Shown in pieces: positions 1,556-24,462 of a stretch of 45,815 nt of DNA (within the stretch, counting starts at the first letter, position 1; every line of letters starts with the position of its first letter). Source of the DNA: Jimgerdemannia flammicorona. Lineage: Eukaryota. The stretch lies in contig RBNJ01000058.1 in assembly GCA_003990765.1 (NCBI GenBank), forward strand, positions 1-45,815, read 5' to 3'. The position numbers and the translations under genes are program-made. The notes under the pieces are model-generated. The model was not told where the DNA came from. It was given only the letters and a program-made list of their open reading frames with translations, and searched no databases.

Positions 1556-3104
1556 TGTAATGGTGACCTCAGAATGATGACATCAGCCTTTCCTTGCAAG
1601 CCACCAGATCAGAGCACAAGAAGATCATATGGCATGACTCATCTAGGCTATAAGATGAGCAATGATGACCAACTGTGAGTCATTGTAACCACAGTATAGA
1701 TATCTTGAAGAAGGATCAAGAAACCACAGTAGCAGTAACTCAATAAGACTCACCAATCCCAAAATAGCTTAAAGATTTATTATAAATGAAATACTTGCTG
1801 TTTGCCAAATTTCAAGGTCAAGAAACCACCAAGGTATCTCAGTCAAAGAAAGGATATTTTAAGACATCAGAAGAGTCATGAGGACCTATACAAGAAAGAC
1901 TTCTAGCCTTAACCTGGGTACTGGAGATCCTTATCACTTTATCCTCTACCACTGTAAAATGGAAACAAAGATCACTATTGCTATTGAATGCCTCCAAATA
2001 TGGCAGAAGTATGAAATAAAAAACCTTCTCTGCCAGAAGTTTCCACAGGCCAGCCCTCAAGAGTTATAAGATATCACTCTTATGAATATATGTAAAACAA
2101 GAACAGCTAAGAAGATTCATCAGATCTTCAGACATATATTATGGTTGATCTCTAACTTGAAGTATATTAGAGTATCAGACTTCAGAGATCTGTCAGCCCA
2201 CTGTATCAATATACTAAAAGCCAGAGTGGCTACAGAAGTCCAGTCCACTATCACTCTCAATAGTGATGAAGTAGAAAACTTCTGACATTCCATCCTCCAG
2301 AATAATTTAGATCAATTTCAGCAAAGATTGATCTCAGTATTCTAAGACTCAAGTATCTAGATTAGATCTCTCCAAGACCCCACATTTGTTCTCTATTTTA
2401 TGGAAGAGAACCTCATAGACTGGAGAGCCCCAGACTTTCTTGTTCCTACCACCAAATATGATGATGTCATCAGCAATGACATCATCCTACATGATATATA
2501 TAAAATATATAACCTATATAATGAGACAGATAAAATGTTCACAGATCTCATCTCCTTCAATAATGATGAGGATGAAGCCTCCATGGTTCTGAATATTCTG
2601 CTCTAAGTCTCTTAATTATACTGAATTATACCAGTATCCTTTTCTTATATAACAACTATTCCACTACTAGTATTCTGACCTTGTGTGATTTAGAATTATT
2701 CTAGTATCATTTTTCTGTATTACTAAAATTATATCAGCATTCTGAATCTGTGCAACCACCTGTGCTGACTCTGGAACTTGGCAGTTTTCTGTATTCCAGT
2801 ATTTTTATTTAGTTATTGGAATTTATATTTAGCTTTATATCTTAGCAACTATTGAATTATATTTTATATAAATACCCTTCTTATTTCCTCTGAAATAAAG
2901 TCAGTCAAGTTCACTTATATACAATCTCTTGCAAGCAATCTAAAGAGATAACAAGACAGTTTAAAGATAAGAAGTTTGAGGACTATAAGACCTTGGGAAG
3001 GTACTTCAATAAGAACTTGCTTATAACAAACTTGAGTTAGTCTAAAAGATATATCTTGAAGAGAATCTGATATATTTGAAGGACTCAGTGATAACTATGT
3101 GACA
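1556..3104 (+). repeat. 5' LTR family A (~1.55 kb, TG...CA)
   Basis: TGTAATGG...GTGACA; colinear with 8652-9517+15336-15908 and 40397-42004; TATAAATA at 2867 and AATAAA at 2894. Confidence 0.92.
1791..2606 (+). pseudogene. ORF inside the family A LTR (U3), ~272 codons, unknown product
   Basis: Track ORFs 1878, 2082 and 2400 share one frame. Several of the intervening stops are sense codons in other LTR copies (TGA/TGG, TAA/CAA, TAG/CAG). The start is ATA here but ATG at 8909 and 40657. Confidence 0.7.
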
Positions 3105-3130
3105 ACTTAGTACCCATTGGCTGGTGATTC
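3105..3130 (+). other. Primer binding site, family A (shared with family B consensus ACTTGGTGCCCATTGGCTGGTGATTC)
   Basis: Lies immediately after LTR-terminal CA and is conserved at 18720, 42005 and in minus-strand copies. The priming tRNA was not identified. Confidence 0.7.
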
Positions 3131-3230
3131 AAGATGAATCTCTCACTTTTAAGCTGAAAAATGAACAACTACCACAACAACTATTCTGACTACAAGAGTT
3201 ACCCCTGCAAGAATTCAAGATAAGATAGAA

Positions 3231-6200
3231 ATGCATCCCCCCACATTCTATGGATATACTACTAAAGAGTCAATCCTGATCTTTATTGAAAACTTTGAAC
3301 AATTTTCTGCTGTATGAGCTCTTAATATAAATATACAATTGACTCTTCTATCAGTCAGTCTCAGAGGACCTGCCAGAGACAAGTTCAATATAGCCACTAT
3401 TGCTAATTCTGGTACAGCCAAACTTGCCAATATAAAGGCCTTTTTCAGAACAATATACTATACTGAAGAGATCAAGCAAGCTCTCAAGGATTAACTCAAT
3501 ACTATCTACCAGGAACTCAGTGAAGATCCCAACTCATTCTATATCCAAATCTGCCACTAGATTGTCTTGGCTGACTATGATGATGCCCTCAAGGAACAAA
3601 TAGTAGATTTTACCTTCCTTAAAGGAGTTTACTCTAAAATTGCCCTAGCAATCCAGTCTACTCTAGCTGTACTGACTCTTGATCAGAAAGTGGTCTTTGT
3701 ACAGAGATATTAGACTACTAGACACTCTGCCAAATACTCAATAGAGAAAATAACTGGCATCAAGATGGAGCCATCAAAGCTAACCAGTATCATACCTACT
3801 ATAGTTGTAAACAGATAATTATTCCCACCTACTTCCAAGATAGCCAAAGCTGATTCAGTGGAGGAACTTGCCAAGCAGTTTGCCAAGATGACTGCACAAC
3901 TAAGTAATGCTATCAGAACCAGAGAACAAACCAATACAGTAGTCATCAAGGAGATTAGTGATACTGATGATGAAGAATACTATAAGAAGCTCAAATTTTA
4001 CCCTGCTACTGAAGGTACCAGAACCCAGTCCAAGCCTTATGATAAGAAGAGCAATAGCAAGCTAGTTGGAAGACCAAAGAAGACTCCAGCTATTACTATT
4101 CAAAGTAAGACCCAATCTAAGGAGATTGATCAAGATATGAAGTTAGATAGAGCTGCCTGCCAAATCATTGAAGACACTACTCTAGTCTCAGGAGAAAGTG
4201 AAAGCAAGAAGGAATAGAAGCTATACAAGACCAAGATCCACTAGTATGATATCTATAAGGATCTCAAGGAACAGAAGGTCAATGCTACTTTTGGATAGCT
4301 AGCCGAAGTTCCTGCCTTCAGATAGCAGTTAAGAGTAGGACTTGCAACTACTGCCAAAAATTAAGAGTATAAGATTGTAGAAGCTCACAATGTACAAGAA
4401 GATGATCAAGAAGACTCAGGCAAAGAATCTGAAGACTAGTGCAAAACATCAGCCTATACTCTATGTCAGATTGAAGATTGTATCTTTGATACCATCATTG
4501 ATACTGATACTGGAGGATACTTCATGAGTAAGAAGACAATTGACTGCCTAGGCTGAGACATTGAAGAGTCTACCAAGATGGTCTATATTATAGCAGATGG
4601 TACACAAGCTACCCTTCTTGACAAAATCTGAGAAGTCTCCATCAAGATAGGAGGAGCTACCATCCCAGTAAATGTGATTGTTATAAGTGCTACCAACTAT
4701 GATATCCTCATTGGTAACCAATGGCTTCATAAGGCCAAGGCCATCATTGACCTCAATTCTCAGAAGATGCAGATCAACTATAGAGAAAGAAAGATATGAG
4801 TCTCTTTCAATATCCACAAAGGAGTTTTATCAGATATGGAGGAAGGAGATGAAGAGGACACAGAAGTCTTCATACACTCAGTAAATAAGAACAAGAACAA
4901 GAACAAGACACCCAAGCTCACAGATGAGCAGTGGTACAACAAGATCATTAATGGCTATGCTTCTCAAGGAAGATGCCTCCATAGTACTAAAATATACTGC
5001 TCTGAACATCTGAATGACTACTGGTCCTATATCAGTGAAGTCAGAAAAATCTGCCAACAGAAGTATGAGCAAGAAATCACTGAAGCAAAAAGGAAAGCTG
5101 AAGAAGATGACCAGCCCCCAGAGCTGCAAGCTGACAGTAATGATGAGGAGGAATAAGAACTAGACATCACCCTCAAGGTTAAGAAGTTTCATCCCAAAAC
5201 CAAGATCCCAGAATACAAGACTAAAGGAGCCATATAAATGGATCTTGCTAGCATTCAAGATACTACCCTCAAACCACAGACCACTACCCTACTTGGTACC
5301 AGAATTGGAGTTAAGTTACTAGAGAACTATATCAGAATTATCAAGACCAGAAACAGTCTGGCCAAAAGTGAAATCTCAGTTAAAAGAGGAATAATTGACC
5401 CTGATTACACTGGTGAGATCTTCCTCATAGTTAGGAATCATAACTCCACTACTCCATTCAAAGTCAAAAAGTATGATAGGATTGGCCAGATGCTGATCCA
5501 TGAAATCAAGAAGCCCAAGATCACTGAAGCCATCAAACTCATCAAGACTAAGAGAGGAGAACAAGGCTTTGGATCTACTAGAAGAGGAGTCTATGCTGCT
5601 ATCAAGATTACTAAACTTGAGTACAAGAAAGACAAGGATCAGAACAAACACACATATATCATTGGAGAAAGCTTTTCTCTAGAAGAACAACTTCTCAAGA
5701 TCCTGTACTAGAACAAAGGAGTACTTGCTATAGACTTCAGGGATATTCACAATCAAGAACTCAAATACTACTATAAAGTTGATACTGGTGATATCAAGCC
5801 CATCTACTAGAAAGCTAGACCTATACCACCTGCCTATAGAGAATGGCTGTAAGCAGAACTCAAGGAAATGGAAGAAGCCAGAATCATCAAGCAAGCTATC
5901 AGTCTCTGAGCTTCACTTATTATCCTTACCCCAAAGAAAGGAAATAAGCCTAAAGAGTTTGTACCAAGACTCTGTATTGACTACAGAAAGCTCAATACAA
6001 TTACCAAGAAGAATAGGCAGTCCTTGCCAAATATTCAAGAAATTCTTACTACTCTTGGAAGTAAAGCCAAATACTATATCACCTTGGATCTGTTTTCAGG
6101 CTTCCATTAGATTGGTCTCACTCAAGATGCTAGTGAGAAATCAGCCTTCATCATATCTAATGCCACCTATATCTACCTGCAAATTCTATTTGGAATATAC

Positions 6201-8288
6201 AATACCCCAGCAAGTTTTCAGCAAATGATGAACAGAGTCTTCAGCAATGAGATTGGAAAATAGCTCTTTGTCTATATTGATAATATAATCATCTTCAGCA
6301 ATACTACATGGGAACATATCAACTACATACAGCTAGCCCTCAAGAAGCTCAAGGAGCATGGTCTCTACATCAAGCCCAAGAAGTATAAGTTTGTAGCTCA
6401 GGAAATCACCTACCTAGGACACCTCATCAACTAGACTGGAATCCACACAGACTCTATGAAGATTGAGACTATTGCAGTCTACCTGAGACCCAGAACAACC
6501 ACAGAAGTCCATGTCTTCCTTGGACTGGCCTCCTACTACAGAAAATTCATCAAAAAATACTCCAATATTGCAGCACCTATCTATGAGCTACTGAAGAAAG
6601 AGACTAAATTCAAATAGATCAAGAAATACCAAGAAATCTTCAATGAACTCAAGACTATGTTGACCTAAGCACCCATTCCTCAGAAGACCAGATTGGAACC
6701 TAGAGTTCATCCTACAGACAGATGCAAGTACTATAGAACTTGGAGCAGTCCTAGCTCAGAAGAAAGATGGACATAAATATGTCATCTCTTATATAAGCTG
6801 AGGTACCTGCAGAGTGGAACAGAACTACAAGTCATGTACTCAAATACTTGGCAGTAGTTTGAGCAGTAGACAAGTTCCACTACTACCTAGCTGAGAAATA
6901 CTTCACTATTCAAACAGACCATTCTGCTCTTGCTTGGCTATTCCACACTCTGAACTCCAAAGAAATATATACTAAATAGATCTATAGGCTATAAGAGTAT
7001 GACTGTACTGTCAAGCACCACTCAGAAAGAACTAATGCCAATGCTGATATACTCTCAAGGATACTCCAAACACCTCCATTAAGACTATTCAATATGAATA
7101 AGAAGTTATACTATTGATTAATCAACTATTTTAGGTAGCAGAAGATGCTCAACCACCTTGAACTCTGGACAATCACCATCATCAACCAGACTTGAAAACA
7201 GTTTAAACTAGACAACACTACACTCAGAAAAGGAGGAAAGCTTGTAATACTCAAATACAAGAAGTATCAAGTAATGATAGAAGTATATGAACAGAGATAC
7301 CTAGGAGGAACCAATATATACAATAAGGCAAGAAGAACTATGTGGTGGCCTAAGATAGAAGAAGATCTGTACCAATTTGTCAAAGAGTGTGATAAGTACC
7401 AAAAACAGAAATAAGATCAGTAAGACCAGATACTCAGGTCATCAAGAATTGAGTCTATCTCCTTCCACCACATTGTAATAGATATCATTAGGCTACTATC
7501 AGTAACACTATCAGGAAACTACTACATTATAGTTATTATAGACCTCTTTACTAAATAGATAGAAGCAGGAGCATTATAAGAAGCCAATGCTCTCTCTATA
7601 GCTGACTTCCTGTACTGAGAAATTATCTGCTACTACAAGACACTAAGGCAAATTACCACAGACCATGATACAGAATTTATCAATGGATTCTATGAGATAA
7701 TATATTAGAAATATAAGATTCAGTATATCAAGACCACTGCATACCACTCTCAAGAAAATAGATAGACAGAGAGAACCAACAAGACCCTCAAGAACATCCT
7801 GGTGAAGATCTCAGATATATGAGAATTGAGATAACTACCTCCCAACTGCCCTCTCTATCCTATGAGATATATGATCATAGAGCACACACTTTACTCCAAG
7901 AGAACTGCTTTTTGAAGAAGAAGATTCCAATGGAACCTTAGCTACAAATCTAGACCTAACTTAGAGATAGATTGACTCAGAAATCCAGAGACTACATCAA
8001 ATCAGGAAGAAGGCTGAATATTATATCATCAAGTCACAAGTACTGATGAGGAAGAATATAGAAAAGAATCACAAGACCCTAAAACCCATCCAAATTGGAG
8101 AAATGGTTCTACTGTATTGAAATATAGTAGAAGCCTCATAATTATAAAAATTGGAGCCTAAATGGGAAGGACCCTTCTATGAGCAAGATATTAAGAGAAC
8201 TATCTTCTGGCTTAGAAAAATCTCAGAGACCATACTGCCTACTATAGTATACAGGAATAGACTCAAGAAGTACCATAAACCTATATAA
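3231..8288 (+). pseudogene. gag-pol: Degenerate gag-pol of family A copy 1 (capsid, protease, Cys/His module, dUTPase, RT, RNase H, integrase)
   Basis: MHPPTFYGY capsid start; IIDT protease; GIIDPDYTGE and RGEQGFGST dUTPase; RLCIDYRKLN, LDLFSGFH and YIDN RT; FILQTDAS RNase H; QEN..ERTN and LEPKWEGP integrase; many transition-derived stops. Confidence 0.9.
5172..5583 (+). pseudogene. dut: dUTPase domain in family A pol
   Basis: ORF 5238-5711 carries RNSL (motif 2), GIIDPDYTGE (motif 3), IGQML (motif 4) and RGEQGFGST (motif 5). Confidence 0.9.
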
Positions 8289-8651
8289 GAGAAGTAAAAT
8301 ATGATGACTGCCTATAAGGTTCTAGTCCATGAATCATAACAGCATGTCCTGTAACCAGCAGACTATCTGTCTGGATCATTCTCTAAGAGATATAGCATCA
8401 GCAACTACTCATCCATGAGACTTTGAAGCCAGAGAAGTTTGAACCATCAACTGATTGGACAAGATCAGAATTAGGCTCTTGCTTTATATAAAGGGAGTGA
8501 CCCTTCACCATTACACCAAAATATATAGGGAAGATACTAGTCCATAAATACTACTTTTTAACCCCTTGCCGGAGGTTATGGGATCAGCAAATTTTTCAGG
8601 ACTGGACCAATGAATAAGGATATTCAAGAAGATCCTTATTCAGGAGGAAGA

Positions 8652-9517
8652 TATAACAGTAACCTCAGAATGATGACATCAGTACAAGAGACAGTCTTTC
8701 CTTGTAAGTCACTAGATTGAAGCATAAGAAGATTATATAACATGACTCACTCAGGCTATAAGATGAGCAATGATGACCAACTGTAAGTCATTGTGACCAC
8801 AGTATAGGCATCTTAAGGAATATAAAAGAAGAATCAAGGAACCACAGTAGCAGAAACTCAATAAGACCCACTAATTCCAAAATAGCTCAAAGACTTACTA
8901 TAAATGAAATGCCTGCTGCTCACCAAACCTCAAGGTCAAGGAATCATCAAGGTACTTTAGTCAAAGAAAGGATATTCTAAGACATCAGAAGAGCCATAAG
9001 GACTCATATAAGAAGGACTCCTAGCCTCAACCTGAGTACTGGGGATCCTTATCACTTTATCCTCTACTACTGTGAAATAGAAATAAGGATCACTATTACT
9101 ACCAAATATCTCCAAATATGACAGAAGTATAAAATAAGAAACTTTCTCTACCAGGAGTTTCCACAGACCAGCCCTCAAGAGTTACAAGATACCACTCCCA
9201 TGGATATATGTGAAACAAGGATAACTAAGAAGATTCATCAGATCTTCAGATATATATCATAGTTAATCCCCAACTTGGAGTATGTTAGAGTTTCAGACTT
9301 CAGAGATCTGTCAGCCTACCATATCAATATACTAAAAGCCAGGGTGGCTACAGAAGTCCAGTTCACTATTACTCTCAATAGTGATAAAGTAGAAGACTTC
9401 TGGCATCCCATTCTTCAGGACAACCTAGATCAATTCCTGCAAGAATTGATCTCAGTATTCTAAGGCCCAAGTATCTAGGTTAGACCTCTCTAAGACCCCA
9501 CATTTGTTTCCTATTTT
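8652..9517 (+). repeat. 3' LTR family A copy 1, left part
   Basis: Follows the PPT and is colinear with 1556-2399. Confidence 0.9.
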
Positions 9518-9548
9518 CAACACAACTTGGAGAAAAGATATTATAGAA

Positions 9549-11569
9549 ATGTCATCAAGCAAGAGTTCTGATGAGCATGCTGGGTCAGGTGAACCTGGGG
9601 CTTTTGGCTGGCAGAATGTCAGAAGGGGTTATGGCCTGGGGATGGGGGCCTTTGGTGGGTTGAAGGGTGGTGAGGGCTCTGGAGGTGGACCAGTGTCTGG
9701 TGGCAATAGGAGGAGGCCTGGCCTCCAAGTTTTGCAGATAAGGTGAAGGAGAGTGGGTGGCCAGCTAGATCTAGGGCTAGTGCTGCTGTGGAAAAGGGCA
9801 AGGCAAGCCTAGGGAGGGGGGGAGGTGCTCAGGTGGGGAATGTGAGTATAGGTGCTGGAGGTACTGTGGCTGGGAGTAGGACTGCTGATGGAAGTGTGAT
9901 GGACAATCAGGAAAAAAAAAGAGATGTGACAGTTGATGGAGGTGTGGGGCAGAGGTTCCTGATGCAGAAGAGAGATCTGGCTGATAGTGTAATAGGGCTG
10001 GCAGTAGCACTGTTACTCAGGAAATTGATCTTGGAGTTTGCAGTAATACTGTGCTTCTGAGGTTTAGTAGTGATAGTGAGGATGGTCTTGGGACTTGTCT
10101 AGAAGCAGGTAGCTGGGGCTGCCTTGGTAAAGTTCCTGAAGGGTCTGGAGGGGGTCAAGGTGGGCTTTGAGGAGGCAGGCCCTCTGGAAGAGGCTCTGAA
10201 GACTGGAGTGGTAATGGTCTCCATGATATACTGCCTGAGGTGGGACCCCAGGGTGGTGCAGCTGTTGGTGAAGGGGGTGCCTACAGTAATGAAGGAGGAG
10301 ACTAGGAGGAGGGTGGAGGAGGTGATGGTGGAGTATGGTGATGTGGTAGATATCAGTTTCCAGGTATGAGAGGGAACTACCATTAAGACTGGTGATGTAG
10401 ATGTGAGGATTAGACTGGTAGGAAGAGAGGCTATAGGGAAGATGAGTGACTGGCCCTCAGTATTGATGTGGGGGGCTTTTGTCTGTAAGGTGTCAAGGGT
10501 GAGAGGGAATGACAAGGAGGAAGAGGACTTATTGGAGGCTCTGGAGGAGTTGAGTAGTACTGTTGAGAGGAGAGCAAAGGCCTGGAAATTGTATGAGAAG
10601 CCGATGCATCTAGAGATTATTGATAGGAAGTGGATTCAAACTAATAAGGTGCAGTGGGAGTAGGCCCAGGGATGCATAAGACAGAGAGAGCTGTTGGTAA
10701 GTATGAGAGGAGGGGCTGTGAAGAAGGTGGATAGAGCTAAGGAGTCTGGGGGTATCAAAGCCAGTGTCTGGGCTAGTAAAGGAGGGGGGGAGGGGGAGAT
10801 GAATAAGGAAGAGACTGGAAAGGTGCTGAACAAGGACCCCTATGCAGATGGTATGTTTGAAGTCTGGGAGCAGGAGTTGGATACCATCCCCCCCCCCCTC
10901 TTATCAGGAGGGGCCCAGTGGTGAATTGAGAGGCAGTGGAAGATATACTGATACAGGGGGCCCTATGAGTACACTTTGGGGTCTCCAATGTGACAAAAGG
11001 GGGCCAGGTGGTGGCAGTTAGAGAGGATGAGCTGGTGGATGTCTCAGAGGAGAAATGGGATAAGGCTGCCAGTATAGGAGCTGATATGTACCACAATGTT
11101 GGATGCTGGGCAGTCAGGGACTCTGGGAGAGAAGGAGGTGGAGAATCTGCTGTGGATGAGCAAGGTGATGGATAACCTTATGGCTGAGGAGTTGGGAGAA
11201 GTGGACCTGCATATAATGCCTGAGGAGCATTGGACACAGATTCTGCATAGAGACAGAGTGGTGGAGGCGCTGAAGGTAGAGATTCTTGTAATCTTTATGG
11301 AGGAGAAGGGGTATGAGGTTGATAAGGTGAGAGAGGCAGAGCTGGCAGTTGTTGCTGGTGAGCAGGCTACCTACTATTGGGCAGAGCATCATGGTTTGCA
11401 GCTCTGGCAGGAGGCCTGTCTGGAGTATCATAAGGACTTTGAGGAGAGAGAAGATGGGGTGATGGTGGAACTTCTGGGAGGGTTGGAGGCACGGGAAGCT
11501 GGAGAGAAGGAACTTGCTGCTGAACATGACTTAGACTTGGCACAGGAGGAGTTAAATGCAGACTTGTAG
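9549..11569 (+). pseudogene. LINE ORF1 (fragmented; Gly-rich N-terminus, RRM-like middle, acidic helical C-terminus)
   Basis: Chain of plus-strand ORF fragments 9504-11569 upstream of ORF2. Domain assignment is by position and composition only. Confidence 0.6.
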
Positions 11570-11600
11570 AGGATGGGATTGATATATAACACTATTTCTT

Positions 11601-14600
11601 ATGAACAGTATAACCAACATTTTCTCTTTGAATGTGAATGGGTTAAGGGGATCTGGGTAGTGTAAGAACATTTTTACTTGGCTCAGGGGATTGAAGGCTG
11701 ATCTTTTTTTACTACAGGATGTATGGTGTGAGAATGAGGATAATTGAGTGGAGTAGACTAGGGAATGGGGTGGAGTTACTGTTTGGTTTGGCAAAGTAGC
11801 AATTCTGGTAAGGAAGGGTAGAGGAGACTTGGGGGGAATCAAGAGCTAGGGTAATCACTTGGTCTGGGGAGATTGGTATCAGCCAGGGTGGGAGTCAGTG
11901 AGGGTTGACTCTTGTTACTGCTCAGCAGTCAGGAGCGAGAGGACTGCATAGATTAAGGAGCTGCTGGAGGAGGGTATTCTCTTGGAGGAAGGGGTTGATG
12001 TTCTCAGTGGGGACTTTAATATGGTTCAGGATTAGCATCTAGATAGATCTGATGGAGAGAGAAATGCAGAGGAGAGAAGTGGCAGTCTAGATACATGAGA
12101 GGAGGTGAAGTATCTGAGCTCCTTAGGAGATATGGGCAGAATATAGTGGGGCAACACTAGGGTCTACACACATTGGGGGAATGGCTTGGGTACAAGGATT
12201 GACTGAATTCTGACAGCTGAGTGTTGGGGTGCAGATGTTTAGAAGACATTAGAGGTGAAATAGTGCCTGTGGTCTGATCACTGGAGACTATTAGGGCAGG
12301 GGTAGTTTGGGGGAAGTAGAGATGGACCTGGACATTGGTGCCTTAACTCCTCCCTACTGGCTGAGAAGGGGTTGTGGGACTTATGGGTGGAGAATATTCA
12401 GGCAAAGGTTTCTATCTAGAGGTAAGAGGGTTTGTCTGTGGGTGTCCATTGGATGAGATTGAAAGAGACTGTGAGGGCCTATTGGGGAGGAGCTGGTAGA
12501 GAAGCTGGGAGACAGAGGAGGAAGTGCACAAGGTGTGCTTCCAATAGGCTGAGGAGACTGCAGATAGATTGGGCAGATTTGCTTACTTCTGATGGGGTAG
12601 AGGATAGAGAGGGTGAAATTGGAAGTGATAGAACTGCAACAGGTGTTGAGAGTAAAGGAGGAGACTCATATATGAGGAATGGCTGCCAGGCTATAGTGGC
12701 AGGGGCTTGAGGAGAGTGAGCAGCCTACTAGGTACTTATCAAGACTCCTCAAAGCTAGGAGGGTGTGACATCAGTGGGATGGGGTCTTCGATGCAGAGGG
12801 GGATATGGTGTATGATATATAATAAATCTTAGGAGTTTTGAAGGAGAGATGGCAGAGTCTATGGAGTGAGGAAGAAGGGGGTGCAATTGAAGATACTCTA
12901 GAGGAGTGGGAGATGCCACAAGTAGCAGGACTGGGTGACTTGATCTTACCAGTACAAGGGGAGGAGATTCAGAGTGTCCTTGTAGCAACTAAGCTTGGGA
13001 TGGCCCTGGGGGAGGATGGGTTATCTTGGGACTTCTGGAAGAAGATAGTAAAGATCTCTGGAGTTTTGGGTGAGATGGCTGCTCTTTGTGACCATGTTCT
13101 TCTGAATGGTGAGTGGGTTGGAGAGCAGGACCTTGGGTTGGTGGCCTTATTGTACAAAGACAAAGAGAGGAGGGAAGACTGGAAGAATTGGAGACTGATC
13201 ATGCTTCTGGATATGGACAGGAAGATAGTGACTAAGGTGATTGTAGTGAGGCTGCAGAAAGTTACCCAACAGGTGCTGGGGGAGAAGCAGCAGGGCTTTG
13301 TTGGAGGCAGACTTATAAGGGATGGAACTGCATGGGTACATGGTATCATTGAAGGGGCCTGTGCTTGTGGACTGGATAGAAGGTTGGTTTTTTTGGACCA
13401 GGAGAAGGCCTATGACTGTGTACAGTAGGTTTGGCTGGGCAAGGTGTTGGATTGAATTAATGTTCCCTCATGATTTTGAGCTTCTATGTTGAATTTGTTA
13501 GAGAGCAGTCAGGTGGCACTAGTGTATAATAGTCACCAAGGGCTGGCATTCTCCTTGGGAAGAGAAGTTCCTCAGGGGGACCCTCTGTCCTCTATTCTCT
13601 ATGCCCTTTCATTAGAATCTTTGATAGATAGGATTCACTAGAAGGTGGCAGAGCTCTCTATATATGGTATAGTGTGGAAGATGGGGGTCTTTGCTGACAA
13701 TATGGTGGTTGGACTTGGGTCTGTGGTAGATGTTGAGGCACTTAAGGAGACAGTGGAATAGTATGAGACACACTCTGGGGTAAAGCTCAACTGACATAAG
13801 TGTGAGACAATAGTGCTAGAGAATAGGCTAGTGGATGGAGATGTCATTGGAACAATTGTCCCTACTAGTGAGATGGTGCGGTATCTGGGCATCTTCCTTT
13901 CTGTATATAGATCTGTCTTGTCATAAGTATGGTGGGAGAGCAGGGTGACCATTTGGGGGGAGGCTCTTAGAGGTTGGGGGGGGCCACTATATCTCTCTGG
14001 CAGGGTGGGTGTTGATTCTGAATGTCTACTGGTTCTCCAAGCTGTAGTATGTAGCCTATTACTTAGACTTCCCAGCTTGAGTGGTAAAGAGGCTAACAAA
14101 GGTGGCTAGAGATTGGATTTGGGCAGAGAGGAGGTCCCAGATCAGTTGGGATACTCTTGCAATACTGGTGGTTAGGGGAGGTCTTGGCCTTGTGGATTTC
14201 CCTAAGAGGTTATACTGCCTGTGAGCCTGGTGGTTGATGAGAGCTACTGAACTGCAGGGAGGGGGTTGGGTACCACTGCTGCAGAAGGTATGGGAGATGA
14301 GACCTCCCCTCAAGGGTCCTTGGGAGATCTGCTCTCTTTGGTAGGGCTGAATGGAATTCAATAGCTATAGTTTAAGGGCTTTTGGTGGGGGGTGATAGAT
14401 GGAGCACACCAAATTGGCCTATGCTGGTGAGGTAATGAGAGGGAGGTAATATGGGGTCCAGATATATGGTGATGGGATAGACTGCTCCTAGGGGATGCTT
14501 TGCTTGCTGAGTTTGATATTGGAGATAGAGTGGAGTGTCAGCAGGGTCTTGGCCAGAATCTTTGGCCAAGTGGCTGGCAGATGGCAGGGATCAGTGAGGA

Positions 14601-15146
14601 GTGGGACTGAGCAAGTATCTGATCATAGAGTGCTGAGGTATGGAGGTGGCTTCCTCCCAAGTTCTGAGTGGTATGGTGGAGGATTCTGCAGAGGAATGTT
14701 ATGCTGAACTTCCACACTAGACATCTGGTAGAAGGTGGACATTTCAATTGTGAGGAGTGTTATAATGTGGGGCAAGCTGGGGGATTTGTACAGATGCCAG
14801 AACATTGGCTGGGAGAGTATGAGGTTTTGAGGGACTTTTGGATAGAAGTAGAGAATAGACTGGGTGTAGAATAAAGACCAGCAGGTGTGGGAGGCTGTTG
14901 GGAGGATTTGAGATCTCAGCTAGTGGGTGGTGTAGGTGATAGTTGGCTCACTATAGGGTGGGTGTTAGTAGTGTAGGTGAGACTGGCTGGTCATTGGCTC
15001 TTTGTATTCAAGGAGGGGTCATAGATAGGGCTATAGAAGAAGGTATTATAGTGGGAGGAGTTGTTGGGAGATCTGCTGACTGGATGGTGGGTGGGTTGGG
15101 GTCCTCAGGGGGGGTGATATCATGGTCTGGTAAAAAGGATCTGTGA
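11601..15146 (+). pseudogene. LINE ORF2 (AP endonuclease + reverse transcriptase + C-terminal Cys-rich)
   Basis: MNSITNIFSLNVNGLR, FLLQD, GDFN, RID and SDH (APE); NWRLIMLLDMDRKI, QQGFVGGRLIRD, FLDQEKAYD, QGDPLS and FADN (RT); CEEC..PEH C-terminal motif. Confidence 0.9.
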
Positions 15147-15305
15147 ACAGAGTGGTAGGAGAGTAGAGATAGTATTAGACAAAGTGGCCTTTTGGCGAGT
15201 AGGGATAGGAGAGGAGAACCCCTCTAAAGGGATCAGATAGGGGGTGGGTTCAATGTATTTATCATATGAGATAGATGGGCAATAAAGAAAGGAAGTCTAA
15301 GTGAC

Positions 15306-15335
<30 letters not shown>

Positions 15336-15339
<4 letters not shown>

Positions 15340-15908
15340 AGACAGATGAAACATTCATGGACCTCATCTCCTTCAGTAATGATGAGGATGAAGCCCCCAT
15401 AGTTCTGAATATTCTACTCTAAGTCCCTTAGTTATACTGAATTATACTAGCATCCTTTTCCTGTATAACAGCTATTCTTCCACTAGTATTCTGACCTTAT
15501 ATAATTTAGAATTATTCTAGCACTATTTTTCTATATCACCAAAATTATACCAGCATCCTGAACCTATATAACCACCTGTGCTGACTCTGGAACTTAGCAG
15601 TTTTCTGTATTTCAGTATTTTTATTTGATTATTATAATTTATATTTAGCTTTATATCTTAGCAACTATTGAATTATATTTTATATAAATACTCTTCTTAT
15701 TTCCTCTAAAATAAAGTCAGTCAAGTTCACTTACACACAATCTCTTACAAGCAATCTAAAGAGATAATAAAACAGTTTAAAAATAAGAAGTTTGAGGACT
15801 ATAAGACTTGAGAAGATACTCCAATAAGAACTTACTTATAACAAACTTGAGTTAGTCTAAGAGATATATCTTGACATATTTGAAGGATTCAGTGACTACT
15901 ATATGATA
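15336..15908 (+). repeat. 3' LTR family A copy 1, right part
   Basis: Colinear with 2520-3104; ends ...TATGATA (from ...TGTGACA). Confidence 0.88.
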
Positions 15909-16235
15909 ATGTTTATAAAAAAAATTAATAAAAAAATTTGAAACTCTATAACTTTAGAAAAACCTAATATATTTTAAAAATTGTTTCATACTTTTATTTA
16001 AATTAAATATTAGAATATTAAGCTTTAGTGATTTAATATTGATTACTTTATATTATATATTGAATTGAATCAAATTTAACTTTAATTTAATTTAATTTAA
16101 ATTTTTATTAATGAGATATACTAATTTAGCAATAATTTTTTTTTTGAAATTTATATAAATATCTTTTTTTTAAGAATTGGCAATCCTTTGGTCTTCTTAG
16201 CAATTATATATATTCTATAGCTTATATATATATAT

Positions 16236-16810
16236 TATAATAGTTAATCTAAATTAGAAACAAAAAATATTTAATTATCTAAATATAATTTTCAAATTTA
16301 ATATAGTATATAGTTAGTAGTTATCTAATTTATATAATATAAAAAAATATTTTACTTATATAGAAAACTTATATAAAATAAGTCATATATATGTATAACT
16401 TAGCTACTATATAGTATAAATACTTTAGTTTTAGAATAAATAATTCTTAAATTAAAATAGTTTAAAAGTAAAGAGACAAAAGAACTAGTATATAAGCCTA
16501 TAGATAGATATATTTCAATTTTATTCATCTTTATATCTAAAGGACTCTGAGAAGTTAAAAAAGATTAAGTATTTAAGATAAAGAAATCTACTATATTTTT
16601 TTGATTATATGACTACTATGTTATAACTTAATATTTATTAGCTAATAATTTAAGATATATAAATCTCTTACTTTTAAGCTAAATAATAAATAACTGCTTT
16701 TATTTCACTCAGACTGATCTAAGATATCTAAATAAGATAAATATAAAATCACTAGTATTTTATAAATATATCTTTGATAAATTAATTATTACCTTTTTTG
16801 AAATTTTAAG
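16236..16810 (+). mobile_element. Fossil family B LTR (16236-16625) + PBS + gag start, extremely AT-converted
   Basis: Aligns with the family B LTR, PBS and gag leader, differing almost only by C>T/G>A. PBS ACTTAATATTTATTAGCTAATAATTT at 16626-16651. Confidence 0.8.
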
Positions 16811-17497
16811 TAATATTATAATAGTTCTAGTTTCTTTAAGAAAAAGTAACTAAATCTGAAAAATTCTAGTAGATCTAAAGTAGCTCAAAGAGATACTTAT
16901 AAATTTAAGTAGTCTTAAAGAATTTCTAAAGAAAAATAAGTTGAGCTTTATTGAGTAAAAAAAAAGAATATTTATAAATCTAAAAAAAAGATATAAAAGA
17001 ATCTTAAAAATAAATAAAAAATCTAAAAAAAAAAATTTCTCAGTAAAGATGACTAATAGAATTTTATAATATTATAAAGAGTTCTAAGTAATAGTTAAAA
17101 CTATAATAATGGTTTGTTATTTTTAATATATAATTATATTATAGCTTAAATATAAATTTTATTAAATTCAAATTTTAATTATTAATAATATAGTATTTAA
17201 ACTTTTGAATAATAATTTTATTTTATTTTATTTAGATAATTATACATAGATATTAATATAATTATTTTAAGTTATATTACTATTATTATAGTTTTGACCC
17301 TCACAAGTATCTAAATCTATTTGAATTTATAGTATACTATTAGATTAAGCTATAATTATCTTTACTATATATTGTTTTTAGATATTCTTTACTACTCTAT
17401 AGTGTTTTTGCTCTCAATTTTAAGCAATAAAAAGGTTTTTTATTAATATTTATAACTGTGATATAGTGAGATAGTAAAAGGGGTTTTTGCTTAATAT

Positions 17498-17986
17498 TAT
17501 AACATAGTAGATGTATAACTATATAAGTATATCAGATTTCTATATCTTGAAAACTTAATCTTCTTTGACTCTGCAGAGTCCTTGAGATGTAGAGATAAGT
17601 GAGTTTGAAGTATATCTACCCATAGACTTATTAGTTCCTTTACTTTTTCTTTACTTTGAACTATTTCAATCTGAGATTTATTTACTCTAGATACTAATAT
17701 ATTTAGATACTAGTATATTTATAAGTTTACTAGCTATAAGATGGCTAAGTTATAACTATATTTTCTATAAGTTATTTTTTATAAGTATAGATCCTCTATA
17801 TCTATAAAATCTCTATAATCATAAAGATTTTATATCTGTAGAATTTCTATATTTATAAAGTTTCTATATTTGTGAAAATATGGCTGCTCTTTATAAGACT
17901 ATACTATATTTGGGAATTAGGTTCAGATACTGTAATCAAATGTCTATTCTTCTGATTCATGTTCCTAATTCAGATCAACTATCATA
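17498..17986 (-). repeat. 3' LTR of family B copy 17498-30932
   Basis: Direct repeat of 30469-30932. Confidence 0.9.
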
Positions 17987-18261
17987 ATTTCCTCCTAAAT
18001 AGATGATTTATCCCTAAAACATTCTATTCACTTGAACTTCTAAGTCTCTACAAGCTGTATCTCCTTATACTGTATAATCTGTATCATCATATTCTTCTAA
18101 TAATATCTTCTGACTTATATAAAGTCTCCTGGAACTACTTTCTGAAAATGAGCTAGAGCTGGCTCATCCTTCTTAAATAACTTATATACTTATTTTACAA
18201 TAGTAATCTGAGTATAAGAGAGCTGGTACTCTCTGATCCAATCTTCTTTTCCCATCTCTAG

Positions 18262-18719
18262 TGTGATGGTACAGTCAAATTTGGAAGAAGAAAATAGGGA
18301 ATAGACACTTGATCGCACCCATTCCCAAAGTAGTATAGCCTTATAGTTAGCAGTCCTCGATTTTGACATTGTCTAAATTCTTAGACATTATCCAAATCGA
18401 ATACCCCAATTTAGTATAGCATTTAGATATTGTCCAAATGTTTCGATAAAGTCCAAATGACTCATTTATTACTTAGTCACCCTCTCATAGCTAGCAAACT
18501 TGTATAAATAACCCAGTATCTTCAAGTGAATAAACCTCAGATCAAAATAGTTCAAAGTAAAGAGATAGCAAAGAAACTAGTAAGCCTGTGGGTAGATATA
18601 CTTCAAACTCACCCACCCTCCCCTACAACTTCAAGAGACTCTGCGAGAGTCAGAACAGTCAAGTTTTCAAGATACAGAAATCTGACATACTTTCAAGAGT
18701 AAGCATCTGCTACATTACA
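18262..18719 (+). repeat. 5' LTR family B (458 bp)
   Basis: TGTGATGG..ATTACA; TATAAATA at 18503 and AATAAA at 18529; matches 24500-24957. Confidence 0.95.
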
Positions 18720-18839
18720 ACTTGGTGCCCATTGGCTGGTGATTCAAGACAAATCCCTCACTTTCAAGCTGAACAATGAACAACTACCACTATCCAAACA
18801 ACCATACAAACTGAGCCCCAATACCCAGACAAGATAGAT

Positions 18840-21800
18840 ATAAGACTGCCAGTATTCCATGGATATACCTCAGATAAATCAATCATCACCTTCATTGATG
18901 ATTTCGAGCAGTATACTGCTGTAAGGACTCTGACAGCAGCACAGCAAGTAGCCCTCATGCCCTTCAGTCTATGAGGCCCTGCTAGAGCAGCATTCACAGC
19001 TGCAACCCATGCAGGAAATGATGCAGATGCCATACTGACAGCACAGAAGACCTGGCTCCAAAATACATATTACACAGATGAGATCAAGCAAGCCCTAAAG
19101 GATTAGCTCAATACAATATGCCAAGGAATGAGTGAGGATCCAAACACATTCTATACCAGAATTCGATATCAGATAATCCTTGCAGATTATGCTGCTGCTA
19201 TCCGAGATCAAGTAGCTGAAACAACCTTCATAAAAGGAGTCCATCCAGAAATAGCCATGGCCATCCGCTCATCACCAGTGATTCTAGATCTGCCACAGAA
19301 GGTCACCTATGCTCAGCGATACTGGATAGCCAGACACCCATAAGACCATACAATGGAGAGAGTTACAGGAGTCAGAATTGAGGCACCCAAGGCAACCAGT
19401 GTGATCCCCACCACAATGATCAATTAAAACACACCTCAGCCAAAAGCTACAGAGCAGCAAAAGAACAGTGACCCTATAGAGGAACTCACCAAAAGGTTTG
19501 CTGAAATGACTGCCCACCTGGGAGATGTGGTAAAGGAAATCTGAGGAAGAGATCGCCACCCTGTTCAGAAGTTCGCCACCACCTCAGACAAGAAGAAAGG
19601 TACCTGCTACAGCTGCAGAGAAGAAGGCCACTACTCCTATGAATGTATGAGTGAAACTAAATGCAAGGCTCAACCAAGCAATGCCACACGAAACAAGGAG
19701 CAGGCCAATACAATCACCTTTGAAGAAATCAGAGAATCCGATGAAGAGAAATGGGAGGCCTATCCTGCTCAGACCACCAAGAAGGATGCTCGCAAAGAAC
19801 CCTACAAGAGACTGCCAGGAAGACCCAAGAAGAACCCAGTGGAAAAGCAGATGGAAACTGACACAGAAAGCCAAGCTGAAGAGATGGACCAAGATATCGA
19901 GCTGAAGCAAGCAGTTCAAGATATCATCCGAGGAACCACTCCAGCCAGTGAAGGAGAAAAAGAAAAGAAGCTTTGCAAGACCAAGACCTTCAAGTATGAT
20001 ATCTTCAAGGATCTCAGTCAATAAAAGGTCAATGCAACCTTTGGTCAGCTTGCAGAAATCCCAACATTCAGATAGCAAATGAGGTTTGGACTTGCCAAAA
20101 CAACCAAGGAACAAGGATGGAAGATAACTGAGGCCAATAATATTCAAGAGGACTCAGGAGAAGAAAGTGAGGACAATTGCAAAACCTCTGCTTACACAAC
20201 ATACCAAATCGAAGATAGAATCTTTGAAGCCATCATTGATACGGGAGCAGGAGGATGTCTCCTTAGTAAAAAGGCAGCAGACCACCTAGGTTGGGATGTA
20301 GAAGAAGCAACTAAGCTAGTATTCATCACAGCTGATGGCACAAGAGCTACACCTCTGGGAAAGATCTGAGATGTTCTCATCAAGATCGGAGGAGCAACAA
20401 TCCCAGTAGATGTAATCATAACCAATGCTACCAACTATGACATCCTCATCAGCAATCAATGGCTTCACAAAGCCAAGGCGGTAATCGATCTCAATGCTCA
20501 GAAGATGCAGATCACCTACTGGGGACAGAAGATACAAATTCCCATCAATGTCAACAAAGGAGTCCTGCCTGATATGGAGGAAGAAGAGAGTGAGCAAGAG
20601 GAAGCTTATATGGTGACTATTCCAAAGAAGAAGAAAGTCAGATGGATGAGTGAAGAAGAATGGTGCAAGAAGATCGCAGAAAGTTATGCCCCACAAGGAG
20701 TCTGTCCCCATGGAATCAAGATGTACTGTATGGAGCATGTCAATGATTGCTACCAGTGTACCATCAGAACCAAGAAGATCTACCAGGAAAGAAGGCAGAA
20801 AGCTCTCAAAAAACAGATCAGAGAAGAAGAGAAGGAGGAAGATGATGAACCACCAGCCCTCCTGAAGGACAGTGATGATGAAGAAGAAATCAAGGTCAAG
20901 ATTCGAAAGATCCACTCTGATGCAGTCTTGCCAGAATACAAGTCAGAAAATGCAGCCAGAATGGACATTGCTACAGTAGAAGAAACTGTACTGGAACCCC
21001 AGACAACCACCCTACTCACAACTGGACTGGAGATGACCATCCCAAAGAATCATGTCGGGATTCTCAAGACAAGAAGCAGCCTGGCTAGAAGTGAAATCAC
21101 AATTGAAGGAGGAGTCATTGATTCAAACTATACTGGAGAAATTCTACTCATTGCTAGGAACCACAATCCTACAATTCCATTCCCAGTCAAGAAGAAGGAC
21201 CAATTGGCACAGATGTTGATCTTCTCAATCATACAGCCAAGGATCATAGAAGTCAAGAATCTGGAGGAAATGAAAAGAGGAAAGAAAGGATTCAGATCCA
21301 CAGGAAGAGGAGTATTCGCCAGCACCAAGATCACCGTACTTGAGCATAAGAAGGAGGAAAACACAAGCAAGCACAGTTACACCATTGGAGATGAATTCCC
21401 ACTCAAGGAGGAACTCAAGAAAATACTTCACAAATTCAAGGATGTCCTTGTCACGGATTTCAAGGATATCAAGGGAAAGACCCCACACTACTATCATGAG
21501 GTAGATACCGGAGACACTGAACCAATTTATCAGAAGGCAAGACCTGTCCTGCCAGCCTACCGAGAATGGCTCAGAGAAGAAATCAAGCAGATGGAAGAAG
21601 CCGGCATCATCAAAGAAGTCAGTAGCCCCTGGTCTTTACCAGTTGTACTAGCTCTGAAAAAAGGAAGCAAACCTGGAGAATTTGCCCCAAGGCTCTGTGT
21701 CGACTACAGAAAGCTCAATGCAGTTACCAAGAAGAATCGCCAACCACTGCTGCTCATCAGTGACATCCTTATAATACTGGGAGATGAAGCAGAGTACTAC

Positions 21801-24011: not shown

Positions 24012-24462
24012 CAAAAGTACTGTGATGGCACTCAAGATCACTAGTGCTGCCCAAAGAGCCATCGAAAGACAATGGCACACCACCGAGCCTCTGACCATAG
24101 AGGCATACTATGAGGATATTCAGAGTATTGTGTAGACTCATCTCTCTCAGATCTCACACTTTAGAGCCTATCAGTATCAGGCAGAATTCCAAGAATACTT
24201 CAAGCTTGGGCAGGTGCTCAATCAGGATCCAGAAAAGACCAAGAAGGACTGGATTGCCGAGTGTCAACTCTCTCACTCACAGATCACTATTGCCAAAAGG
24301 ATCCACAAGTTATTCCAAGAAGATGAACCAGCAATAGACTATCTGAGAGAAGTAACCCCCACTGACTTTGAGAAAGTGAAGAGACACTATTGGGAAACAG
24401 TCATACAGCAAATTGCACAGTACAAGACCATACAGACAGTTGAAGCCTGGGAGTTTGAATAG
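24001..24462 (+). pseudogene. Accessory ORF3, 153 aa, unknown function (one internal TAG)
   Basis: MASNKSTVMALKITS..EYFKLGQ..AKRIHKLF..KRHYWE..QIAQYK..VEAWEFE; an equal-length homologous ORF lies at 33581-33120. Confidence 0.82.

Follow-up and report, generated by a model that had tools for sequence, protein, structure and literature searches.

The retrotransposons at the locus

The window, i.e. the whole 45,815-nt stretch of Jimgerdemannia flammicorona contig RBNJ01000058.1 analysed here, harbors two elements of one LTR retrotransposon family, called family A below. Unless the minus strand is named, all features lie on the forward strand. Element 1 begins with a 5′ LTR copy (c1, 1556–3104) which was delimited by repeat families and alignments and which has TG...CA ends. 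Its start is placed at 1556, a correction from 1544, on the basis of the PPT junction in copy c2 and the loose ends of soil contigs, while its end is set by ATGTGACA at 3097. The internal region (3107–8286) is decayed and frameshifted. It comprises a leader/PBS, gag and a PR-dUTPase-RT-RNaseH-integrase region with the pol stop at 8284–8286, and Pfam matches on read-through translations occur in the order RVP_2, dUTPase, RVT_1, RT_RNaseH, Integrase_H2C2 and rve. Given its direct LTRs and its PR-(dUTPase)-RT-RNase H-integrase order, family A belongs to a dUTPase-bearing lineage of the Ty3/gypsy group (Metaviridae). The pol-to-PPT spacer (8287–8651), delimited from the sequence, ends with the PPT AGGAGGAAGA (8642–8651), which directly adjoins the 3′ LTR copy c2.

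Copy c2 was aligned in two parts, 8652–9517 and 15336–15908, the latter with a TATA box at 15681 and AATAAA at 15710. Between them lies a 5.8-kb non-LTR retroelement (9518–15335) with an APE endonuclease, an RT and a poly-A tail at about 15308–15335. Element 2 begins with a further 5′ LTR (c3, 40397–42004), recognized by alignment and followed by a second body. A PBS-like, TGG-containing sequence, TTGGTACC, follows both 5′ LTR copies, and the family-A PPT-LTR junction recurs in soil-metagenome contigs. Both 5′ LTR copies also have an odd 11-nt flank in common.

A decayed reading frame in three LTR copies

Each of the three LTR copies carries the same reading frame, which we refer to as the LTR gene. 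In c1 it spans 1791–2606 (271 codons and a TAA); the start position now reads ATA and five stops interrupt the frame at codons 25, 94, 166, 186 and 191, numbered from 1788. In c2 an ATG at 8909 is followed by 203 codons with six stops (8909–9517) until the retroelement breaks the LTR at 9517, where 120 nt of the gene are missing; its tail resumes at 15342–15422, with the last codons at 15342–15419 and the stop at 15420–15422. The c3 frame (40657–41499) starts with ATG at 40657 and consists of 280 codons and a stop, with eight internal stops and, compared with c1, in-frame indels of +33 nt and −6 nt. The three copies are co-linear over ~271 codons, and the preliminary description was right that the frame is preserved in all of them and opens with ATG in two. 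The gene starts ~235–260 nt from the LTR 5′ end and stops ~260 nt ahead of the TATA box. Since it lies wholly within the LTR, a full element has two copies of it.

The stops appear to be later damage. All of them are one transition away from a Gln or Trp codon, with codon 20 in c3 (TAA versus AAA) as the single exception. The preliminary description had noticed that several stops are sense codons in a sister copy; in fact 11 of the 12 stop positions read CAA, CAG, TGG or AAA in some sister copy. The twelfth is the TAA at codon 25, which is common to c1, c2 and c3. Related soil-metagenome contigs have a C at the corresponding position 1860 in 669 of 700 depth units, and the codon is Gln in intact homologues, so that no stop counts as fixed when sister copies are taken together with relatives and intact homologues. 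Furthermore, C>T/G>A changes alone account for 60 of the 84 amino-acid differences between c1 and the intact homologue P0004 and for 75 of the 107 between c3 and the intact homologue P0005. They also explain all stops, and the reverse control explains 3–8. Judging from these patterns, all three copies in the window were probably killed later by heavy C>T/G>A hypermutation. Since c3 is itself hypermutated, using it as outgroup to polarise the mutations gave no information.

Coding constraint on the frame

Only one stop is present in every copy in the frame of the gene, whereas the other frames have 6, 13, 5, 22 and 9 such stops. In c1 alone, the gene frame contains six stops (terminal stop included) and the other five frames 11–31. 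Indels between c1 and c3 respect the frame: the two within its 816 nt (6 and 33 nt) are both multiples of three, whereas of the 16 in the remaining 747 nt, 11 are not. Differences are unevenly distributed over the codon positions (68/59/98, with 270 sites for each position; chi-square p 0.004). The distribution is flat in sequence outside the frame (46/44/49), and also between the two LTRs of one element.

Selection was assessed with transversions only, comparing the decayed copies of the two independent element lineages in the window. This omega is 0.38 between c1 and c3 (15 synonymous to 30 non-synonymous changes, p 0.003) and 0.33 between c2 and c3, in both cases well below 1. As controls, shifted frames gave 0.70 and 1.56 and pol gave 0.24. 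The LTR pair of a single element has a transition omega of 1.20, matching neutral decay after insertion. The LTR gene thus appears to have been under purifying selection during the divergence of the element lineages. As omega between these two lineages is as low as that of pol, the gene was presumably maintained while the element transposed.

Intact homologues and related DNA

When the intact proteins P0004 and P0005 are compared with the c1 gene by tblastn, they match at E 1e-104 and 3e-100, co-linearly and without introns. Among 374 candidates, five intact homologues were retained at E 1e-96 to 1e-25, and an exhaustive profile search of 1,835,955,588 proteins yielded five representative clusters at E ≤ 0.001. 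The public intact homologues reach 342 aa and are all unnamed and without a Pfam family; with no Pfam family and only five representative clusters in 1.84 billion proteins, the protein family is new. Its distant intact ORFs are 28–47% identical to P0005 and keep both the motifs and the MP..R start. The contigs which bear the homologues are short ENA or JGI sequences of 720–2375 nt, which is about the size of the LTR. Among 2424 candidates, no fused or longer form of the protein was found.

Related DNA occurs in soil. From two soil-metagenome DNA runs (word shares 0.08 and 0.04), 1046 and 140 contigs aligned to the LTR at 80% or more. The letters in which they differ from the LTR are mostly T>C and A>G, including position 1860 (TAA to CAA) and position 2285 (TGA to TGG). 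Soil-contig depth is low over 2445–2760. Pattern searches for related loci gave 243 matches in metagenome contigs, 23 in genome contigs and 104 in viral contigs, none of which was confirmed, and an exact 33-nt LTR pattern had no match in metagenome contigs.

Features of the predicted protein

The LTR-gene protein has no membrane segment, a negative hydropathy and a pI of ~4.5, and is predicted to be soluble and not Env-like. Charge is distributed unequally along the chain: the first 60 residues comprise 13 K/R and 5 D/E, the last 61 residues 18 D/E and 4 K/R. A helical N-terminal half, with a basic N-terminus in close relatives, precedes a conserved middle part (WNPILQDNPDQ[FW]LQ ... F[QE]GPPI ... 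PQDP..PY[FM]) and an acidic tail which is predicted to be disordered and bears two to three copies of a [DV]L[IN]xF motif. The distant P0013 and P0014 do not keep the arginine-rich N-terminus seen in close relatives, and this weakens a Rev/Tat-like RNA-binding reading.

Standard family and structure searches gave little. Neither the window copies nor the intact homologues matched a Pfam family, ATG5_HBR staying below the cut-off at E 0.09–0.1, and a PDB sequence search returned only E > 1. AlphaFold2 models reached a mean pLDDT of 35.7 with four sequences and 42.0 with ten. A Foldseek search of PDB with the second of these models gave no match at E ≤ 0.001, a result which carries no meaning because the model is too poor. 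The ESM Atlas search returned only unnamed or unrelated clusters.

By analogy, our best guess, though less likely than not, is that the protein is a trans-acting regulator or adaptor. Its helical domain would bind a component of the element and the motifs of the acidic tail would recruit a host factor. Like retroviral accessory proteins, it would boost transcription of the element or export of its RNA, or counter silencing.

A remote homologue in family B

A second family in the window, family B, carries a small third reading frame. This ORF3 (24001–24462; 153 codons and a stop, one internal stop) begins just ahead of the pol stop in a different frame and ends 37 nt before the 3′ LTR. The family-B PPT is located at 24490–24498 and the 3′ LTR, 458 bp in length, begins at 24500, leaving ORF3 outside. 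Another copy of ORF3 with four internal stops lies on the minus strand (33120–33581). Ten intact homologues were recognized among 51 candidates, in a family which includes P0016–P0025, and the transversion omega is 0.15.

Families A and B are of the same PR-dUTPase-RT-RH-INT lineage and have the same PPT sequence and LTR-start sequence. Past the first bases, no similarity was detected between their LTRs (E at least 0.59). When the LTR gene and family-B ORF3 were compared by hhalign (A5 versus A6), the probability was 86.6 (E 4.5e-6, 113 columns), which falls short of 95, both profiles being shallow (Neff ~2 and 1.6). None of 100 column shuffles reached 43.5 (best 22.5), and a reversed alignment gave 22.1. 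Earlier hhalign comparisons with shallower alignments had probabilities of 14.2 and then 74.0. In addition, hmmsearch gave weak reciprocal matches at the right places.

The two genes differ in position and extent. The LTR gene is located downstream of the PPT in family A, whereas ORF3 lies between pol and the PPT in family B. Both share the helical domain, but family-B ORF3 lacks the middle and acidic-tail parts; the LTR gene is ~120 codons longer, at the C-terminal end. The family-A pol-PPT spacer (8287–8651) contains no ORF3 remnant that hmmsearch with both ORF3 profiles could recognize (E > 0.9). By its remote homology to family-B ORF3, the LTR gene is probably a lineage-specific third (‘ORF3’) accessory gene.

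Taken together, intact relatives elsewhere and a related small post-pol gene in sister elements point to an unusual gene placement and not to a chance frame. From the sequence data, we put at about 80% the probability that this frame is what decay has left of a real retrotransposon gene of ~271 codons, wholly inside the LTR and remotely homologous to family-B ORF3.

Signals in the LTR and route of expression

Downstream of the gene, the segment 2804–2899 consists of a conserved block at 2804–2863, the TATA box TATATAAATAC at 2865 and AATAAA at 2894. The frame is thus located upstream of TATA and AATAAA, as had been described beforehand. From their positions, TATATAAATAC and AATAAA are presumed to be the promoter and the poly-A signal of the genomic RNA, in which case the LTR upstream of both would be U3. 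What stands of the interpretation in the preliminary description, an accessory gene in U3, is an accessory protein gene wholly inside the LTR and upstream of TATA and poly-A signal; the U3 label itself derives from the positions of these two motifs. Of the outcomes which the preliminary description named as refuting (fixed stops, indels random with respect to frame, dN/dS near 1), none was obtained, with natural intact homologues taking the place of a de-mutated consensus.

Being upstream of TATA and AATAAA, the LTR gene would be carried by the genomic RNA in its 3′ U3 but not at its 5′ end. Translation would use a sub-genomic message which ends at the LTR poly-A signal and which would either be leader-spliced or begin at an LTR-internal promoter near 1604–1663. 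Here, ~130–190 nt upstream of the gene start, a non-coding block (1604–1663) is conserved between c1 and c3, with no transversions and no gap columns in 60 nt. It contains ATGACTCAT, with TGACTCA at 1635, and CTATAAGA, and is a candidate promoter, enhancer or splice-acceptor region.

Alternative explanations

Several other readings of the frame were weighed. It is barely conceivable that there never was a gene and that this stretch of an A-rich, hypermutated repeat is open by chance: although all three copies are broken by 5–8 stops and one stop is common to all, fixed stops are scarce in this frame only, indels are in frame, the third codon position shows an excess of differences, omega is 0.33–0.38 versus 0.70 and 1.56 in shifted frames, and intact homologues extend down to 28% identity. 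This reading was rejected on the stop, indel, codon-position, omega and homologue tests. The 1.55-kb repeat might instead not be a true LTR at all but a recombinant or tandem array, with the gene really internal. Element 1 indeed lacks a clean target-site duplication (ATAT versus ATGT at best) and the 5′ copies have their 11-nt flank in common; but TG...CA ends, a PPT directly before the 3′ copy, the same PPT/LTR-start sequence in family B, PBS-like sequence after both 5′ copies and the PPT-LTR junction in soil contigs render this explanation highly improbable. Ty3/gypsy third ORFs are usually proposed to be envelope-like or structural, and the family-B homologue does sit at the classical env position after pol. 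However, an envelope-like protein, or another structural one of virion or movement type, is quite improbable for a product which lacks a hydrophobic segment, has negative hydropathy, a low pI and an acidic, predicted-disordered tail, and matches no envelope or fusion family. Finally, LTR retrotransposons do capture cellular sequences, and the frame could be a transduced host gene fragment, a passenger in the LTR with no role for the element. The absence of a recognisable retroelement domain in the protein would fit such an origin, which we nevertheless regard as improbable: the only five clusters in 1.84 billion representatives include no longer or annotated cellular protein, the post-pol ORF3 of the sister family B is the only remote relative that could be detected, and omega between element lineages is as low as that of pol.

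A further alternative concerns expression and leaves the reality of the gene undisputed. In a self-contained LTR cassette, the block at 1604–1663 would be the gene's own promoter and the LTR AATAAA its terminator, and both LTRs as well as solo LTRs, rather than only a spliced 3′-LTR message, would yield the protein. The block is free of transversions and gaps between c1 and c3 while neighbouring sequence varies. TGACTCA, which we take to be an AP-1/Gcn4-like site, is kept in all three copies (1635, 8743 and 40488). The TATA-like CTATAAGA is followed by ~110 nt without ATG, and all three copies are free of ATG from ~1670 up to the start region. The LTR-like size of the homologue contigs (720–2375 nt) would also agree with this model, though they could be DNA or RNA. 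On the other hand, the block might just as well enhance the main promoter, serve in integrase binding or packaging, or form a splice acceptor region (a polypyrimidine run and AG at ~1585–1600), and transcription from an upstream promoter in the 5′ LTR would cross the main promoter. On balance, we consider the self-contained cassette possible but rather unlikely.

Comparison with known systems

To our knowledge, only a few vertebrate retroviruses are known to have genes wholly within an LTR. The sag gene of MMTV (‘LTR ORF’) is a gene of ~300 codons in the U3 of an LTR of more than 1.2 kb, in sense orientation and upstream of the promoter. Both LTRs carry it, and it can be read only from the 3′ portion of transcripts or from other promoters; its product is a type II membrane glycoprotein, a superantigen of a vertebrate retrovirus. 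Similarly, the LTR gene of family A is a complete ORF in a long LTR, upstream of the LTR TATA in what would by position be U3. Unlike Sag, its protein lacks a membrane segment, and Pfam and PDB searches detected no sequence similarity; unlike MMTV, family A is a Ty3/gypsy retrotransposon without env.

The foamy-virus tas/bet and lentiviral nef genes are accessory or regulatory genes located 3′ of the structural genes and running into the U3 of the 3′ LTR. The activation domain of Tas is C-terminal and acidic, and Nef recruits host adaptors through short acidic or dileucine motifs. The acidic tail of the LTR-gene protein with its repeated [DV]L[IN]xF motifs resembles both, and any likeness in activity would be by analogy. 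In contrast to tas/bet and nef, which only overlap the LTR, the LTR gene lies wholly inside it, and no homology to them was found.

Third genes are common in LTR retrotransposons and mostly unexplained. Full-text literature searches returned no case of a Ty3/gypsy gene wholly inside the LTR. For a non-Env regulatory third gene, the best precedent is CERV, from the Ty3/gypsy element Cer1 of C. elegans. In the available excerpts of its description, CERV is post-pol, lineage-restricted and without outside homologues, is expressed from a spliced message, is needed for genomic RNA export, and encodes 517 aa with a Cys finger and a leucine zipper (PMC10309623). Bdelloid rotifer LTR retrotransposons with their ORF3s, and plant Athila/Tat and fungal Boty (brtn) elements with extra ORFs, are PR-dUTPase-RT-RH-INT or fungal gypsy elements whose family-specific extra ORFs are, in the sections available, of diverse or unknown function (PMC5408684, PMC2864245, bioRxiv 10.1101/2021.04.13.439636). 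According to the excerpted rotifer paper, the ORF3s there are usually expressed via spliced messages. As far as these excerpts describe them, such ORFs follow pol ahead of the LTR or occupy other parts of the body, whereas the LTR gene is inside the LTR, and their GDSL, DEDDy, TM and coiled-coil features were not found in the LTR-gene protein.

Extending these comparisons, a regulator gene may have shifted from its post-pol place into U3, as in complex retroviruses, with every LTR, solo LTRs included, acting as a promoter-gene-terminator cassette which serves the family in trans; this full scenario we regard as unlikely. Independent expression of the LTR copy would turn solo LTRs into protein-coding units, and such coding, if true, would change both repeat annotation and the view of how the family is regulated. 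Sister families with homologous third genes, inside the LTR in one and outside it in the other, offer a natural comparison for the co-evolution of LTR borders and accessory genes.

Retroelements in the window

That the LTR of family A holds an accessory gene, the core of the preliminary description, is well supported: stops, indels, codon position, omega and intact relatives all bear it out. The window is AT-rich eukaryotic DNA and consists of a nest of retroelements. Self-comparison and Pfam searches on read-through translations distinguish two related Ty3/gypsy families, A and B, which share the domain order PR-dUTPase-RT-RNaseH-integrase. LTR retrotransposons with a dUTPase between PR and RT are described from fungi, bdelloid rotifers and planarians in passages of PMC2864245, PMC5408684 and PMC6431247.

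Element 1 of family A comprises a 5′ LTR (1556-3104, by self-comparison), a body (3105-8651) and a 3′ LTR in two parts (8652-9517 and 15336-15908), split by the insertion of a 5.8-kb retroelement that has a poly-A tail and encodes APE endonuclease and RT domains. In element 2 the 5′ LTR occupies 40397-42004 and the body reaches the window end. The three copies of family B have LTRs of only ~458-484 bp, with pairs at 18262-18719 and 24500-24957 and at 32596-33079 and 38494-38977. Only two soil-metagenome DNA runs (X1 and X2) share words with the family A LTR. The LTR start, previously placed at 1544, is corrected to 1556: the polypurine tract (PPT) directly precedes the equivalent base in the 3′ copy and in the soil contigs. 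The same 11-mer, TGAGATATATA, stands before both independent family A 5′ LTRs (1544-1555 and 40385-40396); its outer flanks are unrelated, and the PPT takes its place at the 3′ LTR. This may reflect a target-site preference.

A constrained reading frame within the LTR

The frame translates co-linearly in all three family A LTR copies, as originally described. The copy in the 5′ LTR of element 1 (c1, 1791-2606) is interrupted by five internal stops and has ATA in place of a start codon. Its counterpart in the 3′ LTR (c2) begins with ATG at 8909, contains six stops and has lost 120 nt at the insertion, resuming at 15342, while the copy of element 2 (c3, 40657-41499) has an ATG at 40657 and eight stops. 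The two ATG starts are thus as first reported, and the remark that several stops are sense codons in a sister copy extends to 11 of 12 stop positions, mostly CAA, CAG or TGG. The single stop common to all copies, TAA at codon 25, corresponds to Gln in all intact homologues covering that codon. Its position 1860 reads C in the related contigs of the soil runs (669 of 700 depth units in X1, 135.5 of 137.5 in X2). The frame lies upstream of the LTR signals, a TATA box at 2865 and AATAAA at 2894, both located as first described.

The frame is more than chance, and four independent tests agree on this. This frame has a single stop that is present in all copies; the five remaining frames have 6, 13, 5, 22 and 9, and over the 500 nt downstream each of the six frames has 7-14. 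Between c1 and c3, the 816-nt frame contains two indels (6 and 33 nt) against 16 in the 747 nt outside; both inside are multiples of three, as are 5 of the 16 outside, the other 11 being out of phase. By codon position, the differences within the frame split 68/59/98 (270 sites each; chi-square p 0.004), against an even distribution outside it (46/44/49). No such bias is seen either between the paired LTRs of element 1, whose divergence is possible only after insertion.

Since the copies are hypermutated (174 transitions and 6 transversions between c1 and c2), omega was computed from transversions only. It is 0.38 for c1-c3 (15 synonymous and 30 non-synonymous changes, expected synonymous fraction 0.158, p 0.003) and 0.33 for c2-c3, hence not near 1. 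Two shifted-frame controls give 0.70 and 1.56, and the positive control, PR-dUTPase-RT of the same two elements, gives 0.24. Transitions give an omega of 0.64 for the frame and 0.69 for pol, against 1.20 between the two LTRs of one element. Constraint on the frame was therefore similar to that on pol during the active life of the lineages, and the later decay was neutral.

Intact relatives

With the X-masked translation of c1 as query, a word-indexed search returns five homologous proteins among 374 candidates (E 1e-96 to 1e-25), and a profile search of all 1,835,955,588 representatives returns five clusters at E <= 0.001. Including cluster members, the homologues are uninterrupted ORFs of 138-342 aa on ENA and JGI/IMG contigs of 720-4848 nt, labelled at best "hypothetical protein"; ten enter our alignment. 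These natural proteins serve as the reference for an open frame, in place of a de-mutated consensus. Relative to the close intact homologues P0004 and P0005, C>T/G>A changes alone can yield 60 of 84 to 75 of 107 amino-acid differences of the window copies, as well as every stop; the reverse-direction control accounts for only 3-8 differences.

The distant homologues P0012, P0015, P0013 and P0014 are 47-28% identical to P0005. The start is conserved in the complete ones (MP..R in P0012 and P0013), and the motifs SLNL..D..H, W.EYEI, AKKIHQVFRHAP, WNPILQDNPDQ[FW]LQ, F[QE]GPPI..P.DP..PY[FM] and I.WR.P are kept. No longer, fused form occurs among 2424 candidates, and the protein searches found no cellular, annotated relative. 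The C-terminal residues ~115-161 of one homologue, P0008, cannot be aligned to the other members; they match the window LTR on its opposite strand, and a short contig of chimeric or inverted origin is the probable source.

Features of the protein

The protein is without a hydrophobic segment and has negative hydropathy and a pI of ~4.5, with 13 K/R within the first 60 residues and 18 D/E within the last 61. Among close relatives, conservation lies at 0.76-0.89 in the first 220 columns of the alignment, falls to ~0.56 over the linker and recovers in two tail motifs, DLISFED and [IV]LNFLL, which distant homologues carry in two or three copies (DLINFS, DLITFS, VLNFT). AlphaFold2 places helices in the N-terminal half at low confidence (pLDDT 35.7 and 42.0). 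Searches of Pfam, PDB, Foldseek (with this low-confidence model) and Atlas gave no usable match.

These features fit a regulator or adaptor that is soluble and presents, in its acidic tail, short linear motifs for a host partner. They do not fit an envelope protein, given the acidic tail and the lack of a hydrophobic segment. An arginine-rich RNA-binding protein is a weak reading because the basic N-terminus is not conserved in distant members.

A homologue outside the LTR in family B

With intact LTR-gene proteins as queries, tblastn gives repeated weak matches at 24187-24456. They fall within a 153-codon ORF of family B (ORF3) that starts at 24001 and ends 37 nt before the 3′ LTR. A second copy lies on the minus strand at 33581-33120 and a third, truncated and more decayed, near 25189, also on the minus strand. 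ORF3 is a real gene, because ten intact homologues occur among 51 candidates and the transversion omega between two window copies is 0.15. Its ATG overlaps the last pol codons in another frame (24001-24020), just before the pol stop, which suggests reinitiation or a spliced message.

In profile-profile comparisons of ORF3 with the family A type, the probability climbed with profile depth, from 14.2 with 4 versus 2 sequences to 74.0 and then 86.6 (E 4.5e-6, 113 columns) with 10 versus 10. Against the score of 43.5, the best of 100 column-shuffled controls attained 22.5 and a reversed alignment 22.1, and weak reciprocal hmmsearch matches fall at corresponding places. By these similarities, ORF3 is assigned as a homologue of the LTR gene located outside the LTR. 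Both families have in common the PPT and first LTR bases, TTCAGGAGGAAG followed by T[GA]TAACAGTA; the gene stands before this landmark in family B and after it in family A. The 365-nt pol-PPT spacer of family A holds no ORF3 remnant, and the LTRs of the two families are unalignable apart from their first bases. Either a move of the gene into the LTR or one out of it would fit these two families.

Possible expression

We infer both the function of the LTR gene and its mode of expression. Should transcription of the genomic RNA depend on the TATA box at 2865 and terminate through AATAAA at 2894, the gene would lie in U3 and be carried only at the 3′ end of that RNA. Its message could arise by splicing, as a sub-genomic RNA, or from a promoter internal to the LTR. 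Between c1 and c3, two non-coding blocks are sharply conserved, 1604-1663 and 2804-2863. The latter is directly upstream of the main TATA; the former has 0 transversions and 0 gaps, lies ~130-190 nt before the start codon and carries TGACTCA and a TATA-like CTATAAGA. In all three copies, the ~110 nt preceding the start region are free of ATG. Block 1604-1663 and the ATG-free stretch are compatible with a second promoter, without proving one.

Comparison with known systems

The LTR ORF of MMTV (sag) is the closest match in layout, and foamy-virus tas/bet and lentiviral nef are the closest in layout and protein style combined. In openly available full texts, no description of a gene wholly inside a Ty3/gypsy LTR was found, and the sole match for an LTR containing an ORF is an MMTV review. 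The closest system in biology is CERV of the Ty3/gypsy element Cer1, according to PMC10309623 a lineage-restricted protein encoded after pol and required for export of the genomic RNA. Rotifer, plant and fungal LTR elements frequently carry additional ORFs; the passages of PMC5408684, PMC2864245 and bioRxiv 10.1101/2021.04.13.439636 that describe them place these in the element body.

Base composition and neighbouring sequences

CpG is nearly absent from the repeats at 1556-15335 and 18262-24957, with observed/expected ratios of 0.00 and 0.01 for the LTR and body of family A, 0.03 for the LINE and 0.21 for family B; TpA is not in excess (0.72-0.96). This looks like methylation-linked or CpG-directed hypermutation, not classical CpA-type RIP. 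The non-LTR retroelement (9518-15335) has a GC skew of +0.39 to +0.50 over 5 kb, its sense strand being rich in G and poor in C; this points to strand-specific deamination or an unusual starting composition. Blocks of very high AT content (GC 0.16-0.29) at 16000-18260, 30900-32600 and 38980-40380 repeat one another in both orientations and are a further repeat family flanking the family B elements.

A host gene with introns, encoding a Dnmt2-like C5 cytosine methyltransferase, occupies 1-1100 on the minus strand (Pfam DNA_methylase, E 8e-9). Its motifs EFYSGIGGM, PPCQPYTR and ENVKGFE are spread over two frames, which implies short introns, and its CpG ratio is 0.94, in contrast to the repeats. 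Between this gene and the LTR, a long, near-perfect inverted repeat (1317-1497) with arms of ~75 nt and a short loop looks MITE-like or hairpin-like.
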